A DNA stretch of 64,000 nt from NCBI RefSeq assembly GCF_022846255.1, contig NZ_AP025682.1, one strand, 5' to 3'. Both the position numbers and the translations under genes were made by a program. How positions within the stretch are numbered: the first letter of the stretch is position 1; the number at the start of each line of letters is the position of its first letter. A model generated the notes under the pieces. That model made no database searches. It worked only from the letters and a program-made list of their open reading frames with translations, and had not been told where the DNA came from. Source of the stretch: Escherichia coli (GTDB lineage: Bacteria; Pseudomonadota; Gammaproteobacteria; Enterobacterales; Enterobacteriaceae). Shown here one piece after another: positions 10,440 through 49,204 of the stretch.

Positions 10440-10528
10440 TTTTTGTTATCAATAAAAAAGGCCCCCCGATTTGGGAGGCCTTATTGTTCGTCTTCGCATT
10501 CTGTTTCACACGACGAAACGCCTCCCAT
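10440..10528 (-). promoter_or_regulatory. pheA transcription attenuator (terminator/antiterminator region)
   Basis: On the minus strand ggcctcccaaatcggggggcc hairpin followed by a U-run, lying between pheL and pheA. Confidence 0.7.
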
Positions 10529-10576
10529 TCAGGGGAAGGTAAAAAAGAATGCGAAGAAAAACGGTGTGTGTTTCAT
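10529..10576 (-). CDS. pheL: pheA leader peptide PheL (15 aa, [15 protein letters not shown])
   Basis: Minus-strand reading atgaaacacataccgtttttcttcgcattcttttttaccttcccctga; seven Phe codons; too short for the ORF track. Confidence 0.9.
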   Translation of the reverse strand: [15 protein letters not shown]

Positions 10577-10679
10577 GTTTGTTTCCTTAAGTGACTTTAG
10601 TACAGTACCCGTACTGTTTTCACGCTGTCAACAAAAAACGCGCCCGAAGGCGCGTTGGCGATACACTCAATATAAAGGA

Positions 10680-14582: not shown

Positions 14583-15310
14583 GTAAGCTGATTGTCCCGC
14601 AGTGGCCGCTGCCAAAAGGTGTTGCGGCCTGTAGCTCTACCCGTATCGGCGGCGTGAGCTTGCCGCCTTACGACTCTCTCAACCTTGGCGCTCATTGTGG
14701 TGATAACCCGGATCACGTTGAGGAGAATCGCAAGCGACTTTTTGCTGCGGGCAATTTGCCTTCTAAACCGGTCTGGCTTGAGCAGGTACACGGCAAAGAT
14801 GTGCTTAAGCTTACTGGTGAACCTTATGCCTCAAAACGAGCAGATGCCTCTTATAGCAATACGCCCGGCACGGTTTGCGCAGTGATGACTGCCGATTGCC
14901 TCCCTGTGCTGTTTTGCAATCGAGCGGGAACGGAAGTCGCCGCCGCTCATGCTGGCTGGCGTGGACTGTGCGCAGGCGTGCTGGAAGAGACGGTTTCCTG
15001 TTTTGCTGATAATCCGGAAAATATTCTCGCCTGGTTAGGGCCGGCAATTGGTCCACGCGCGTTTGAAGTGGGGGCGGAGGTTCGCGAGGCGTTTATGGCA
15101 GTAGACGCCAAAGCGAGTACAGCTTTCATTCAGCATGGTGATAAGTATCTGGCGGATATTTATCAGCTTGCCCGGCAGCGTCTGGCGAGCGTTGGTGTTG
15201 AACAAATTTTCGGCGGCGACCGTTGTACATATACGGAAAATGAGACTTTCTTCTCTTATCGTCGCGACAAGACCACCGGTCGTATGGCAAGTTTCATTTG
15301 GCTGATATAA
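14579..15310 (+). CDS. pgeF: YfiH/PgeF purine nucleoside phosphorylase-like (polyphenol oxidase family) protein (243 aa)
   Basis: Overlaps the rluD stop by 4 nt; synteny with rluD and clpB. Confidence 0.9.
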   Translation: MSKLIVPQWPLPKGVAACSSTRIGGVSLPPYDSLNLGAHCGDNPDHVEENRKRLFAAGNLPSKPVWLEQVHGKDVLKLTGEPYASKRADASYSNTPGTVCAVMTADCLPVLFCNRAGTEVAAAHAGWRGLCAGVLEETVSCFADNPENILAWLGPAIGPRAFEVGAEVREAFMAVDAKASTAFIQHGDKYLADIYQLARQRLASVGVEQIFGGDRCTYTENETFFSYRRDKTTGRMASFIWLI

Positions 15311-15371
15311 CCTAAAGAATCAAGACGATCCGGTACGCGTGATTTTCTTTTCACATTAATCTGGTCAATAA

Positions 15372-15405
15372 CCTTGAATAATTGAGGGATGACCTCATTT
15401 AATCT
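15372..15405 (+). promoter_or_regulatory. Probable sigma-32 heat-shock promoter of clpB
   Basis: cttgaa (-35-like) and cctcatttaa (-10-like, compare CCCCATNT) about 40 bp upstream of the clpB ATG. Confidence 0.5.
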
Positions 15406-15439
15406 CCAGTAGCAACTTTGATCCGTTATGGGAGGAGTT

Positions 15440-18013
15440 ATGCGTCTGGATCGTCTTACTAATAAATTCCAGCTTGCTCTTGCCGATGCCCAATCACTTG
15501 CACTCGGGCACGACAACCAATTCATCGAACCACTTCATTTAATGAGCGCCCTGCTGAATCAGGAAGGGGGTTCGGTTAGTCCTTTATTAACATCCGCTGG
15601 CATAAATGCTGGCCAGTTGCGCACAGATATCAATCAGGCATTAAATCGTTTACCGCAGGTTGAAGGTACTGGTGGTGATGTCCAGCCATCACAGGATCTG
15701 GTGCGCGTTCTTAATCTTTGCGACAAGCTGGCGCAAAAACGTGGTGATAACTTTATCTCGTCAGAACTGTTCGTTCTGGCGGCACTTGAGTCTCGCGGCA
15801 CGCTGGCCGACATCCTGAAAGCAGCAGGGGCGACCACCGCCAACATTACTCAAGCGATTGAACAAATGCGTGGAGGTGAAAGCGTGAACGATCAAGGTGC
15901 TGAAGACCAACGTCAGGCTTTGAAAAAATATACCATCGACCTTACCGAACGAGCCGAACAAGGCAAACTCGATCCGGTGATTGGTCGTGATGAAGAAATT
16001 CGCCGTACCATTCAGGTGCTGCAACGTCGTACTAAAAATAACCCGGTATTGATTGGTGAACCCGGCGTCGGTAAAACTGCCATCGTTGAAGGTCTGGCGC
16101 AGCGTATTATCAACGGCGAAGTGCCCGAAGGGTTGAAAGGCCGCCGCGTACTGGCGCTGGATATGGGCGCGCTGGTGGCTGGGGCGAAATATCGCGGTGA
16201 GTTTGAAGAACGTTTAAAAGGCGTACTTAACGATCTTGCTAAACAGGAAGGCAACGTCATCCTGTTTATCGACGAATTACATACCATGGTCGGCGCGGGT
16301 AAAGCCGATGGCGCAATGGACGCCGGAAACATGCTGAAACCTGCTCTGGCGCGTGGTGAATTGCACTGCGTAGGTGCCACGACGCTTGACGAATATCGCC
16401 AGTACATCGAAAAAGATGCTGCGCTGGAACGTCGTTTCCAGAAAGTGTTTGTTGCCGAGCCTTCTGTTGAAGATACCATTGCTATTCTGCGTGGCCTGAA
16501 AGAACGTTATGAGCTGCACCACCATGTGCAAATTACTGACCCGGCAATTGTTGCAGCGGCGACGTTGTCTCATCGCTACATTGCTGACCGTCAGCTGCCG
16601 GATAAAGCCATCGACCTGATCGATGAAGCAGCATCCAGCATTCGTATGCAGATTGACTCAAAACCAGAAGAACTCGACCGACTCGATCGTCGTATCATCC
16701 AGCTCAAACTGGAACAACAGGCGTTAATGAAAGAGTCTGATGAAGCCAGTAAAAAACGCCTGGATATGCTCAACGAAGAACTGAGCGACAAAGAACGTCA
16801 GTACTCCGAGTTAGAAGAAGAGTGGAAAGCAGAGAAAGCCTCGCTTTCTGGTACGCAGACCATTAAAGCGGAACTGGAACAGGCGAAAATCGCTATTGAA
16901 CAGGCTCGCCGTGTGGGTGACCTGGCGAGGATGTCTGAACTGCAATACGGCAAAATCCCGGAACTGGAAAAGCAACTGGAAGCCGCAACGCAGCTCGAAG
17001 GCAAAACTATGCGTCTGTTGCGTAATAAAGTGACCGATGCCGAAATTGCTGAAGTGCTGGCGCGTTGGACGGGAATTCCGGTTTCTCGCATGATGGAAAG
17101 CGAGCGCGAAAAACTGCTGCGTATGGAGCAAGAACTGCACCATCGCGTTATTGGTCAGAACGAAGCGGTTGATGCGGTATCTAACGCTATTCGTCGTAGC
17201 CGTGCGGGGCTGGCGGATCCAAATCGCCCGATTGGTTCATTCCTGTTTCTCGGCCCAACGGGTGTGGGGAAAACAGAGCTTTGTAAGGCGCTGGCGAACT
17301 TTATGTTTGATAGCGACGAGGCGATGGTCCGTATCGATATGTCCGAGTTTATGGAGAAACACTCGGTGTCTCGTCTGGTTGGTGCGCCTCCGGGATATGT
17401 TGGTTATGAAGAAGGTGGCTATCTGACCGAAGCGGTGCGTCGTCGTCCGTATTCCGTCATCCTGCTGGATGAAGTGGAAAAAGCGCATCCGGATGTCTTC
17501 AACATTCTGTTGCAGGTACTGGATGATGGGCGTCTGACTGACGGGCAGGGGAGAACGGTCGACTTCCGTAATACGGTCGTCATTATGACCTCTAACCTCG
17601 GTTCCGATCTGATTCAGGAACGTTTTGGTGAACTGGATTATGCGCACATGAAAGAGCTGGTGCTCGGTGTGGTAAGCCATAACTTCCGTCCGGAATTCAT
17701 TAACCGTATCGATGAAGTCGTCGTCTTCCATCCGCTGGGTGAACAACACATTGCGTCGATTGCGCAGATTCAGTTGAAACGTCTGTACAAACGTCTGGAA
17801 GAACGTGGTTATGAAATCCACATTTCTGACGAGGCGCTGAAACTGCTGAGCGAGAACGGTTACGATCCGGTCTATGGTGCACGTCCTCTGAAACGTGCTA
17901 TCCAGCAGCAGATCGAAAACCCGCTGGCACAGCAAATACTGTCTGGTGAATTGGTTCCGGGTAAAGTTATTCGCCTGGAAGTTAATGAAGACCGGATCGT
18001 CGCCGTCCAGTAA
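15440..18013 (+). CDS. clpB: Chaperone/disaggregase ClpB (857 aa); internal GTG at 15884 corresponds to the known ClpB-80 start
   Basis: [24 protein letters not shown]...; two AAA+ modules (GEPGVGKT and GPTGVGKTE Walker A motifs). Confidence 0.96.
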
Positions 18014-18452: not shown

Positions 18453-19994
<1,542 letters not shown>

Positions 19995-20079
19995 CCTTAA
20001 AGAAGCGTACTTTGCAGTGCTCACACAGATTGTCTGATAGAAAGTGAAAAGCAAGGCGTCTTGCGAAGCAGACTGATAC

Positions 20080-20155
20080 GTCCCCTTCGTCTAGAGGCCC
20101 AGGACACCGCCCTTTCACGGCGGTAACAGGGGTTCGAATCCCCTAGGGGACGCCA
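20080..20155 (+). tRNA. gltW: tRNA-Glu (anticodon UUC), spacer tRNA of the rRNA operon
   Basis: gtccccttcgtctagaggcccaggacaccgccctttcacggcggtaacaggggttcgaatcccctaggggacgcca; ends in encoded CCA. Confidence 0.95.
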
Positions 20156-20387
20156 AGCGTTAACTGATGAGGTCAAACCTCCCAGGGGACGCCACTTGCT
20201 GGTTTGTGAGTGAAAGTCACCTGCCTTAATATCTCAAAACTCATCTTCGGGTGATGTTTGAGATATTTGCTCTTTAAAAATCTGGATCAAGCTGAAAATT
20301 GAAACACTGAACAACGAGAGTTGTTCGTGAGTCTCTCAAATTTTCGCAACACGATGATGAATCGCAAGAAACATCTTCGGGTTGTGA

Positions 20388-23291
<2,904 letters not shown>

Positions 23292-23389
23292 ACAACGCCG
23301 AAGATGTTTTGGCGGATAGAGAGAAGATTTTCAGCCTGATACAGATTAAATCGACAGGTCATAACGAGACGTGTTGATAAAACAGAATT

Positions 23390-23509
23390 TGCCTGGCGGC
23401 CGTAGCGCGGTGGTCCCACCTGACCCCATGCCGAACTCAGAAGTGAAACGCCGTAGCGCCGATGGTAGTGTGGGGTCTCCCCATGCGAGAGTAGGGAACT
23501 GCCAGGCAT
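23390..23509 (+). rRNA. rrfG: 5S ribosomal RNA (120 nt)
   Basis: tgcctggcggccgtagcgcggtggtcccacctgaccccatgccgaactcag...gggaactgccaggcat. Confidence 0.96.
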
Positions 23510-40647: not shown

Positions 40648-41603
40648 TGAAGCAACTTTGGTTTGCCATGTCATTAGTGACAGGTAGCCTGTTATTCTCT
40701 GCTAACGCCTCGGCCACTCCCGCGTCCGGGGCGTTATTACAGCAGATGAACCTGGCCAGTCAGTCACTGAATTACGAGCTGTCATTCATCAGCATCAATA
40801 AACAGGGTGTTGAGTCTCTGCGTTATCGACATGCACGCCTCGATAACCGTCCTCTTGCACAATTGTTGCAAATGGATGGCCCGCGCCGGGAAGTGGTACA
40901 GCGCGGCAATGAGATCAGCTATTTTGAACCGGGACTTGAACCGTTCACGCTTAATGGCGATTACATTGTTGATTCTCTGCCATCGCTCATCTATACCGAT
41001 TTCAAACGCCTTTCTCCTTACTACGACTTTATCTCCGTCGGGCGCACGCGTATTGCTGATCGTCTTTGCGAAGTTATTCGCGTGGTTGCCCGAGATGGTA
41101 CACGCTACAGCTACATCGTGTGGATGGACACCGAATCGAAATTACCGATGAGGGTTGATCTCCTTGATCGCGATGGTGAAACGCTGGAACAATTTCGCGT
41201 GATTGCTTTTAATGTCAATCAGGATATCAGCAGCAGTATGCAGACGCTGGCGAAGGCAAATTTGCCGCCGTTGCTTTCTGTTCCTGTAGGTGAAAAAGCC
41301 AAATTCAACTGGACTCCAACCTGGTTGCCACAGGGTTTTAGCGAAGTTTCCAGTAGTCGACGTCCGCTACCGACGATGGACAACATGCCTATTGAATCAC
41401 GTCTCTATTCCGACGGATTATTCAGCTTCTCGGTAAACGTTAACCGCGCTACGCCATCGAGCACCGATCAGATGTTGCGCACCGGACGCAGAACCGTCAG
41501 TACAAGCGTACGTGATAACGCCGAAATCACCATTGTCGGTGAACTGCCGCCGCAAACGGCGAAACGCATTGCCGAGAATATTAAGTTCGGGGCAGCGCAA
41601 TGA
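40647..41603 (+). CDS. rseB: Sigma-E regulatory protein RseB (318 aa)
   Basis: Signal peptide; synteny in rpoE-rseABC. Confidence 0.95.
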   Translation: MKQLWFAMSLVTGSLLFSANASATPASGALLQQMNLASQSLNYELSFISINKQGVESLRYRHARLDNRPLAQLLQMDGPRREVVQRGNEISYFEPGLEPFTLNGDYIVDSLPSLIYTDFKRLSPYYDFISVGRTRIADRLCEVIRVVARDGTRYSYIVWMDTESKLPMRVDLLDRDGETLEQFRVIAFNVNQDISSSMQTLAKANLPPLLSVPVGEKAKFNWTPTWLPQGFSEVSSSRRPLPTMDNMPIESRLYSDGLFSFSVNVNRATPSSTDQMLRTGRRTVSTSVRDNAEITIVGELPPQTAKRIAENIKFGAAQ

Positions 41604-42079
41604 TCAAAGAGTGGGCTACCGTCGTCTCCTGGGAAAACGGGCAGGCGCTGGTTAGTTGTGATGTTAAAGCCTCATGCAGCAGCTGCGCTTCACGCGCCGG
41701 TTGCGGTAGCCGCGTGTTGAATAAACTTGGCCCGCAAACCACGCATACCATTGTCGTACCCTGTGATGAACAGTTAGTGCCGGGGCAAAAAGTAGAATTA
41801 GGAATCGCCGAAGGCAGCCTGCTTAGCTCCGCATTACTGGTTTATATGTCGCCGTTGGTGGGACTATTCCTCATCGCTTCACTATTTCAGCTACTCTTTG
41901 CTTCAGATATTGCAGCATTATGCGGTGCGATTCTCGGTGGCGTTGGTGGATTCCTGATTGCACGTGGCTGCTCTCGAAAGTTTGCTGCCCGGTCTGAATG
42001 GCAACCGATCATCTTAAGCGTGGCCTTGCCGCCTGGCCTTGTGCGATTTGAAACATCTTCGGAAGACGCGAGCCAGTGA
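41600..42079 (+). CDS. rseC: RseC (159 aa)
   Basis: Cys-rich N-terminus and two TM helices; synteny. Confidence 0.93.
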   Translation: MIKEWATVVSWENGQALVSCDVKASCSSCASRAGCGSRVLNKLGPQTTHTIVVPCDEQLVPGQKVELGIAEGSLLSSALLVYMSPLVGLFLIASLFQLLFASDIAALCGAILGGVGGFLIARGCSRKFAARSEWQPIILSVALPPGLVRFETSSEDASQ

Positions 42080-42276
42080 TTTCACTGGCTTTGTTGCATT
42101 TTGCATAACAAATGCGAGGACGTTTCCAGATACCACAATCCATACGGTATGAACATTTCCTCGCCTCAATGTTGTAGTGTAGAATGCGGCGTTTCTATTA
42201 ATACAGACGTTAAGCTCAGAACAGCGACTTCTAAAAGCCTGGTTAACCGGGCATTAAGGCACAATAATCATACTTT

Positions 42277-44076
<1,800 letters not shown>

Positions 44077-45112: not shown

Positions 45113-45308
45113 TTATTTATGAGATAAATCTCCCGTGGCTAACGACATCCCCCGTCGTTGTGTATAGAATATTCCCCCGAAGTTTAAGGTTGGCACCTCC
45201 AGGTTGCCACGGCACACGAAACAGCGTTGGTCCCCATATACCGGTAAACTGAAACTGCAGCGAAGCAGTTAGCAGAGCCATGTATATCAGGTCTGTTTCG
45301 TGTGCTGA

Positions 45309-46921
<1,613 letters not shown>

Positions 46922-48784: not shown

Positions 48785-48809
48785 AAAATACCGTTCTCTT
48801 TATAAAGTA

Positions 48810-48845
48810 AAACCCCCGAACTGGTAAGGAACGGGGGTTTTCAGT
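48810..48845 (+). terminator. Terminator after acpS
   Basis: cccccg ... cggggg inverted repeat followed by TTTT. Confidence 0.55.
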
Positions 48846-49204
48846 TTACAACTTTAATTTTGTGCAGCACACGATTCCAACGGAAATAATTATGGATCAA
48901 TTTCGTTGACCTGTACAAGCAACTTGCAATCTCTGACATAAAAAACGCGAGCCTTTACGAAGAAATCGACATTGATGAAAAGATTAACGTGACCGCTTTT
49001 TGATAAGTACATTAAAATCGGTTTCATTATTGGCAATTTTGCTGTGCTTTACACCATGCCACTGAATTCCCCCATTGAAACGAGTGGTGTCGTCAAAGCT
49101 CTGGTGTGGAGTGCAGCACTCGATTCCAATAACTCGCACGTTCAGTTTTGGGGAGATGTAAGGGCTAATCTGAACGGCTGCATTCCTTGTTTAAGGAAAA
49201 ACGA

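Follow-up and report, generated by a model that had tools for sequence, protein, structure and literature searches.

The clpB locus and its internal start

The stretch of DNA analysed here (the window, 64,000 nucleotides) comes from Escherichia coli, and carries clpB in the gene order rluD-yfiH-clpB, followed by an rRNA operon (16S-tRNA-Glu-23S). The protein encoded by clpB is identical to RefSeq WP_001235102.1, an 'ATP-dependent chaperone ClpB', and the RefSeq annotation, transferred to this DNA, has the gene begin with the ATG at 15440. The RefSeq record that we inspected has a single coding sequence for clpB. An earlier note on this DNA had pointed to a second potential start, a GTG at codon 149 that is in frame within clpB, and to a Shine-Dalgarno-like (SD-like) sequence at 15872..15879. 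Both were found, with all coordinates exact. The features of the locus that bear on two translation starts are the following.

15373..15400, + strand: sigma-32 promoter-like motif CTTGAA-14 nt-CCTCATTT upstream of clpB (regex match)
15430..15437, + strand: SD sequence GGGAGGAG of the primary start, the ATG at 15440 (-10.2 kcal/mol)
15440..18013, + strand: clpB coding sequence, stop codon included (open reading frame and translation), for full-length ClpB (ClpB95), 857 amino acids, 95.6 kDa
15440..15883, + strand: N-terminal domain, codons 1-148, in the long isoform only (PDB 1khy_A, Pfam Clp_N)
15872..15879, + strand: internal SD sequence GGAGGTGA, within codons Arg144-Gly145-Gly146-Glu147
15884..15886, + strand: GTG, codon 149 (Val149), the internal in-frame start assigned to ClpB80
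15884..18013, + strand: reading frame of the short isoform, ClpB80, 709 amino acids, 79.9 kDa with fMet replacing Val149
18453..19994: 16S rRNA gene of the adjoining rrn operon
19984..19991, + strand: anti-SD sequence TCACCTCC at the 3' end of 16S rRNA, which pairs with the internal SD (reverse-complement match of GGAGGTGA)

The GGAGG core of the internal SD ends 7 nt upstream of GTG149, and all 8 nt of the element are complementary to the 3' end of 16S rRNA. The gene for the latter is itself in the window and ends in ...GGATCACCTCCTTA, which contains the anti-SD. Upstream of clpB, the CTTGAA-14 nt-CCTCATTT motif is the only match to the sigma-32 regex on either strand of the window. Based on the known sigma-32 consensus, we take it to be the putative heat-shock promoter of clpB.

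The domains of the protein follow the order expected for ClpB, a class 1 Hsp100 disaggregase of the AAA+ type, namely an N-domain, a first nucleotide-binding domain (NBD1), a lid and M-domain region, NBD2 and a C-terminal D2-small domain. The corresponding Pfam matches (Clp_N in two stretches, AAA, AAA_lid_9, AAA_2 and ClpB_D2-small) are all far above cut-offs, and many PDB chains of E. coli ClpB match residues 1-857. The isolated N-domain has been solved as a 148-residue chain that matches residues 1-148 (1khy_A), and thus GTG149 is the codon immediately following the solved domain, at the boundary between the N-domain and NBD1. Another structure, 4ciu_A, is of an N-terminally truncated E. 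coli ClpB that comprises residues 143-857. The masses that we computed for the full-length protein (95.6 kDa) and for Met plus residues 150-857 (79.9 kDa) fit the names ClpB95 and ClpB80.

Matches to the 2.8-kb clpB region were found in 5425 of 5426 complete E. coli genomes; identity is 99.8% to Nissle 1917, CFT073 and their relatives, and just 95-99% across the whole region in 4807 genomes. The 81 nucleotides around the internal start (15845..15925) are nevertheless 100% identical in 5350 of the 5425 genomes, including NEB5-alpha, a derivative of K-12. In the one variant allele of this segment that we opened, the change is at 15913, outside both the SD and the GTG. This is the dual-start clpB system of K-12: besides the species and the 81-nt context, the codon at which the second start lies, its SD, the domain boundary and the sizes of both products all agree. 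The difference is one of strain background alone (this clpB is nearest to the Nissle 1917/CFT073 type), and no change was seen at or near the site.

The primary reports of the internal start in ClpB are those of Squires et al. 1991 and Park et al. 1993. More recent work gives an alternative GUG start at position 149 of E. coli ClpB (PMC6168691), and clpB is one of three E. coli genes, together with infB and mrcB, whose internal starts had been characterised before they were revisited by Ribo-RET (10.1101/520783). The earlier note had proposed ribosome profiling as a check, and the literature already holds the answer: in both E. coli BW25113 and BL21, Ribo-RET gives a well-defined and specific ribosome peak at the verified internal site of clpB (10.1101/520783). 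The same paper cites a mutation of the start codon in E. coli that removed the product of about 80 kDa, which it credits to Park et al. 1993.

Strength of the internal Shine-Dalgarno sequence

To place the internal SD among the other potential ribosome binding sites of the gene, all ATG, GTG and TTG triplets in the three frames of clpB (133 sites) were scored by pairing the region from -20 to -3 with the 3' end of 16S rRNA. GTG149 ranks first of the 133, at -10.6 kcal/mol, ahead of the canonical start (-10.2 kcal/mol) and of the next best site (-6.4 kcal/mol). With an extended anti-SD (GAUCACCUCCUUA), the value for GTG149 becomes -15.2 kcal/mol via eight consecutive pairs, and that of the annotated start stays at -10.2 kcal/mol.

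We then considered how often a site of this kind would be expected from the peptide and the codon usage of the gene. When the peptide was held fixed and synonymous codons were redrawn from the usage of clpB itself, 1.1% of 20,000 resamplings had a GTG with an SD at least as strong. The key choice for the internal SD is the codon GGA at Gly145, which is the rarest glycine codon in clpB (4 of 63). The bare 8-mer, on the other hand, is unremarkable: the window holds three copies of GGAGGTGA against 1.2 expected, and one of these is the complement of the 16S 3' end. Taken alone, the sequence pattern is weak evidence for an internal start. The conserved R-G-G-E/Q peptide by itself yields a G-rich, SD-like stretch. 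The internal SD is also predicted to be mostly base-paired in the mRNA, with an unpaired probability of 0.15-0.36.

Codon conservation in Enterobacterales-like and other bacteria

To examine selection at synonymous sites among close relatives, we searched contigs from metagenomes for a degenerate pattern of residues 150-160, a choice that avoids both the SD and codon 149. The scan returned 120 loci and 100 distinct alleles (about 65-100% nucleotide identity over codons 1-160, four out-of-register alleles excluded), of which 80 were intact and in register over 390 codons. These 80 alleles are Enterobacterales-like, with 83-100% protein identity.

In 79 of the 80 alleles, Val149 is encoded by GTG. 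The entropy of this codon column (0.10 bit) is the lowest of the 22 conserved valine columns; in the other 21, the GTG fraction ranges from 0.04 to 0.87 and the entropy is mostly 1.3-1.9 bit. A similar bias is found at Gly145, where the codon is GGA (71) or GGG (7) in 78 of 79 alleles, compared with a combined GGA and GGG fraction of at most 0.85, and in most cases of about 0.2 or below, in the other 30 conserved glycine columns. Immediately adjacent third positions are free to vary, with CGT, CGC, CGG and CGA all used at Arg144 and all four glycine codons at Gly146. Given that these positions vary while Gly145 and the GTG are held, the constraint singles out the GGAGG and the start codon and not the whole stretch. 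The sole allele without GTG149 (L145, in which the codon is GTC) has RSGSN in place of RGGES, and has lost the SD as well. Shared ancestry is controlled for informally here, since the columns compared come from the same sequences. In the Enterobacterales-like clade, GTG149 and the SD core are under purifying selection beyond the needs of the protein.

The picture is different across a broader range of species. Scanning a genome collection yielded 80 clpB loci, each from a different species and most of them from Gamma- or Betaproteobacteria, with 66-98% protein identity, and 81 sequences were compared. All 81 have V, I or M at the column of Val149, where the codon is GTG in 34, ATG in 3 and GTC, GTT, GTA or ATT in 44. 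Relative to the valine usage of each gene, GTG is not enriched among the 74 valine codons of this column (34 observed, 36.7 expected). Nor is a start codon at column 149 associated with a strong SD in the 81 species (10 of 37 with a start codon, 12 of 44 without); these 12 still score -7 kcal/mol or lower. In the 44 species that have no start codon at column 149, in-frame starts within the linker (residues 140-160) are no commoner than in other windows of 21 codons. Conservation of the codon-149 start throughout the Proteobacteria was rejected on these three counts. Outside the Enterobacterales-like clade the site is scattered among other gammaproteobacteria, and occurs in Rodentibacter, Marinobacter, Alcanivorax, Methylophaga and some metagenome-assembled genomes (MAGs).

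The same comparison indicates how easily the pattern can arise. At an unrelated column, residue 262, amino-acid content produces a start codon together with an SD in 25 of the 81 species. The combination of a start codon and an SD was therefore discarded as a lone detector of internal starts.

We lean slightly towards the view that the ClpB80 start is restricted to a clade and not near-universal, and that most other Gamma- and Betaproteobacteria keep Val149 for protein reasons only. If true, many proteobacteria make full-length ClpB only, or produce a short form by another route. The absence of GTG enrichment in the 81 proteobacterial sequences stands against the high conservation of this codon that was claimed from a protein alignment (PMC6168691). 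That study concerned Mycobacterium tuberculosis, in which ClpB and ClpB-deltaN, isoforms of about 93 and 80 kDa, are ascribed to an internal start at the equivalent valine. M. tuberculosis belongs to a distant lineage that lies outside our sample, and the description of its GTG as 'highly conserved' rests on the protein alignment. A conserved valine in such an alignment is no proof of a conserved start codon, which bears on claims that the pair of isoforms is universal.

Proposed origin of two proteoforms from one clpB mRNA

We consider it almost certain that translation of the clpB mRNA also starts internally and in frame, at the GTG at 15884..15886, and that ClpB80 is made from there. That GTG149 is the start of this isoform in E. 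coli, as the earlier note had it, is supported by the identity of the locus, the published work, the computed masses and the constraint at synonymous sites. In this scenario, 30S subunits would bind the GGAGGUGA element (15872..15879) through eight base pairs with the 3' end of 16S rRNA, and initiation at GUG149 with fMet would give ClpB80 (709 amino acids, 79.9 kDa). The short protein would begin right after the N-terminal substrate-binding domain and would retain NBD1, the M-domain and NBD2. Ribosomes that enter at the ATG at 15440 would make full-length ClpB95. A single heat-shock-inducible mRNA, probably driven from the sigma-32-like motif, would thus offer two ribosome entry points.

The two products may then mix into hetero-hexamers with a better disaggregation activity. 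Published work describes hetero-oligomers of ClpB95 and ClpB80 as synergistic, with a higher disaggregation activity than either form alone, and in substrate-engaged ClpB the N-domains form a trimer contributed by alternating protomers (PMC6941012, PMC6546751). For this synergy, for initiation at the site and for the loss of the short form on mutation, we rely on the papers cited; this strain presumably behaves like K-12 and BL21. The internal start of ClpB95/ClpB80 is textbook knowledge, and the analysis adds no new E. coli biology. Its novelty is modest and consists of a codon-level map of selection, at the third position of Gly145 and at GTG149, together with an indication that the start is clade-restricted. 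For annotation, the point is that one E. coli gene encodes two chaperone proteoforms, and we suggest that the internal start merits a feature of its own.

Other roles for the element must be weighed. One is that the internal start is switched by temperature, with a hairpin resembling an RNA thermometer that hides the SD when it is cold. The minimum free energy fold of 15835..15935 does pair CACC.GCC (15835..15842) with GGA.GGUG (15872..15878), with z = -2.1 relative to shuffled sequences, and the ratio of short to long form is higher under heat stress according to Chow and Baneyx 2005, as cited in PMC11005335. However, between 30 and 50 C the prediction shows no trend in the unpaired probability of the SD, which stays at 0.15-0.20 when 40 or 60 nt of flank are included and at 0.35-0.36 when 100 nt are. 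The z-score is modest, and predicted pairing is the norm for G-rich SDs at nearly any site, including the canonical one (unpaired probability 0.13-0.22). In addition, ribosomes arriving from the primary start would keep unwinding the region. With the predicted accessibility of the SD unchanged from 30 to 50 C, such a hairpin is unsupported and we regard a thermometer as very unlikely.

We attach the same low probability to the idea that the internal GGAGG is mainly an elongation pause site that aids co-translational folding, with initiation as a side effect. The element lies exactly at the boundary between the N-domain and NBD1, and its affinity for the anti-SD is above that used by the primary start, both of which would suit a pause. 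Pausing by SD-like sequences is itself disputed. A pause needs no start codon 7 nt downstream, yet the GTG is kept in 79 of 80 alleles, and in the sole exception (L145) the GTG and the SD are lost together.

It is even less probable, and in our estimate extremely so, that the GTG and the SD are by-products of encoding the ...RGGESV... linker, and that the 80-kDa protein comes from an internal promoter or from proteolysis of the N-domain. An RGG peptide does give an SD-like sequence with or without a start codon behind it, the GTG count across the 81 Gamma- and Betaproteobacteria is no higher than valine codon usage predicts (34 against 36.7), and internal transcripts of clpB have been suggested in Leptospira (PMC6941012). 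A scan of 15250..16000 with the sigma-70 consensus, which is a weak test, returned 0 promoter-like sequences where 0.9 would be expected by chance, and an internal sigma-70 promoter for a short transcript was set aside on that basis. What the linker peptide cannot explain is the synonymous constraint in the Enterobacterales-like clade (GTG in 79 of 80, GGA or GGG in 78 of 79, with neighbouring third positions free), and both the Ribo-RET peak and the mutagenesis of the start codon point to initiation (10.1101/520783, PMC11005335).

Finally, a start of the short isoform at Met143 (ATG, 15866..15868), six codons upstream, with GTG149 as incidental, is the least likely reading of all: although ATG is the better of the two start codons and an automated caller chose Met143 from the Salmonella Ribo-RET data, next to nothing of an SD precedes this codon (-2.4 kcal/mol with the extended anti-SD, against -15.2 for GTG149, the GGAGG being downstream of Met143), the selection on GTG149 at synonymous sites would be left unexplained, and in Salmonella a Met143 mutant keeps both forms whereas the change GTG445->CTT at Val149 leaves the long form only (PMC11005335).

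Internal initiation at GTG149 has close parallels in other genes and organisms. The two other E. coli genes, infB (IF2-alpha/beta) and mrcB (PBP1b), likewise yield two in-frame proteoforms and have internal Ribo-RET peaks (10.1101/520783). They encode unrelated proteins, and the internal start of clpB differs in that it removes a whole folded domain and gives products that co-assemble in one hexamer. The nearest parallel outside E. coli is the ClpB-L/ClpB-S pair of Salmonella Typhimurium, for which the homologous GTG start at Val149 was established by chromosomal mutation and Ribo-RET (PMC11005335). Salmonella is a different genus, but it falls inside the clade that holds the start codon and the SD core at synonymous sites.

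The relative amounts of the two forms are a separate matter. Although its SD outranks that of the primary start, the internal site is reported to give the minor product, with a short-form band about ninefold weaker than that of the long form in Salmonella (PMC11005335). SD strength alone therefore does not explain the isoform ratio, which could instead reflect the use of GTG and not ATG, local structure or the traffic of elongating ribosomes. In Salmonella Typhimurium, the ratio of ClpB-L to ClpB-S is reported to shift under SPI-2-inducing conditions (PMC11005335).

Internal Shine-Dalgarno sequence and its predicted hairpin

The internal Shine-Dalgarno (SD) sequence that precedes the GTG at codon 149 of clpB is stronger than the primary SD. 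Despite this, the short ClpB isoform is reported to be the minor product, as in Salmonella (PMC11005335). The internal SD is predicted to lie in one arm of a hairpin:

15835..15878, +, predicted hairpin in which CACC.GCC pairs with GGA.GGUG of the internal SD

The predicted fold of 15835..15935 has a minimum free energy of -24.1 kcal/mol (z = -2.1), and the predicted accessibility of the internal SD is low and constant over temperature.

Start-like codons in other clpB alleles

Among 100 Enterobacterales-like alleles, only L145 (metagenome contig Ga0224527_1000112) lacks GTG at codon 149, where it has GTC. Within codons 144-149 it also has RSGSN instead of RGGES, and the SD is gone; it looks as if the internal start and its SD were lost jointly in one lineage.

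In more distant relatives, start-like codons occur at or near the same place. Val is replaced by Met (ATG) at the residue-149 column in some Betaproteobacteria, namely the Comamonadaceae-like MAGs L063, L067 and L072. The residue-143 column is GTG with a -9.3 kcal/mol SD in three Betaproteobacteria (L058, L061 and L072), and column 150 is ATG in Thiomicrorhabdus (L037) and Acinetobacter (L079). These could be independent or shifted internal starts.

The residue-262 column (about 16223..16225 in the window) is a ready-made false positive for the prediction of internal starts from sequence only. Across loci L002-L081 it holds a conserved Val after the sequence coding for GEFEERLKG, and in 25 of the 81 species its amino-acid content alone makes it score as a start codon with an SD.

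Choice of the clpB start

A mechanical ORF list opens clpB further upstream (MGGVM...), at the following codon:

15428..15430, +, alternative in-frame ATG, four codons 5' of the annotated clpB start

We set this ATG aside. At -4.9 kcal/mol it has weak SD pairing, and GGGAGGAG, the SD, is situated downstream of it, between the two ATGs; the annotated start at 15440 is therefore the sensible choice.

RNA genes and Rfam matches in the window

A complete rRNA operon adjoins the 3' side of clpB (18453..23507, +):

18453..19994, +, 16S rRNA
20080..20152, +, tRNA (tRNA-Glu per the matching Nissle 1917 annotation)
20272..20380, +, StyR-44 (Rfam match)
20388..23291, +, 23S rRNA
23392..23507, +, 5S rRNA

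Four other Rfam matches, all at gathering level, have no relation to the clpB internal start:

10452..10577, -, Phe leader
41564..42395, -, AsrC (antisense RNA of rseC)
45179..45393, +, rncO regulatory element
48804..48881, -, ohsC antitoxin sRNA

A further match falls at the 5' end of clpB:

15321..15459, +, RF02768 (Ysr155/RyfD sRNA; Rfam, 125 bits vs a gathering score of 42)

This match overlaps both the sigma-32-like promoter and the 5' UTR of clpB and reaches into the opening codons of the gene. The Ysr155/RyfD "sRNA" may be no more than the leader of clpB, or a short transcript of its 5' end.
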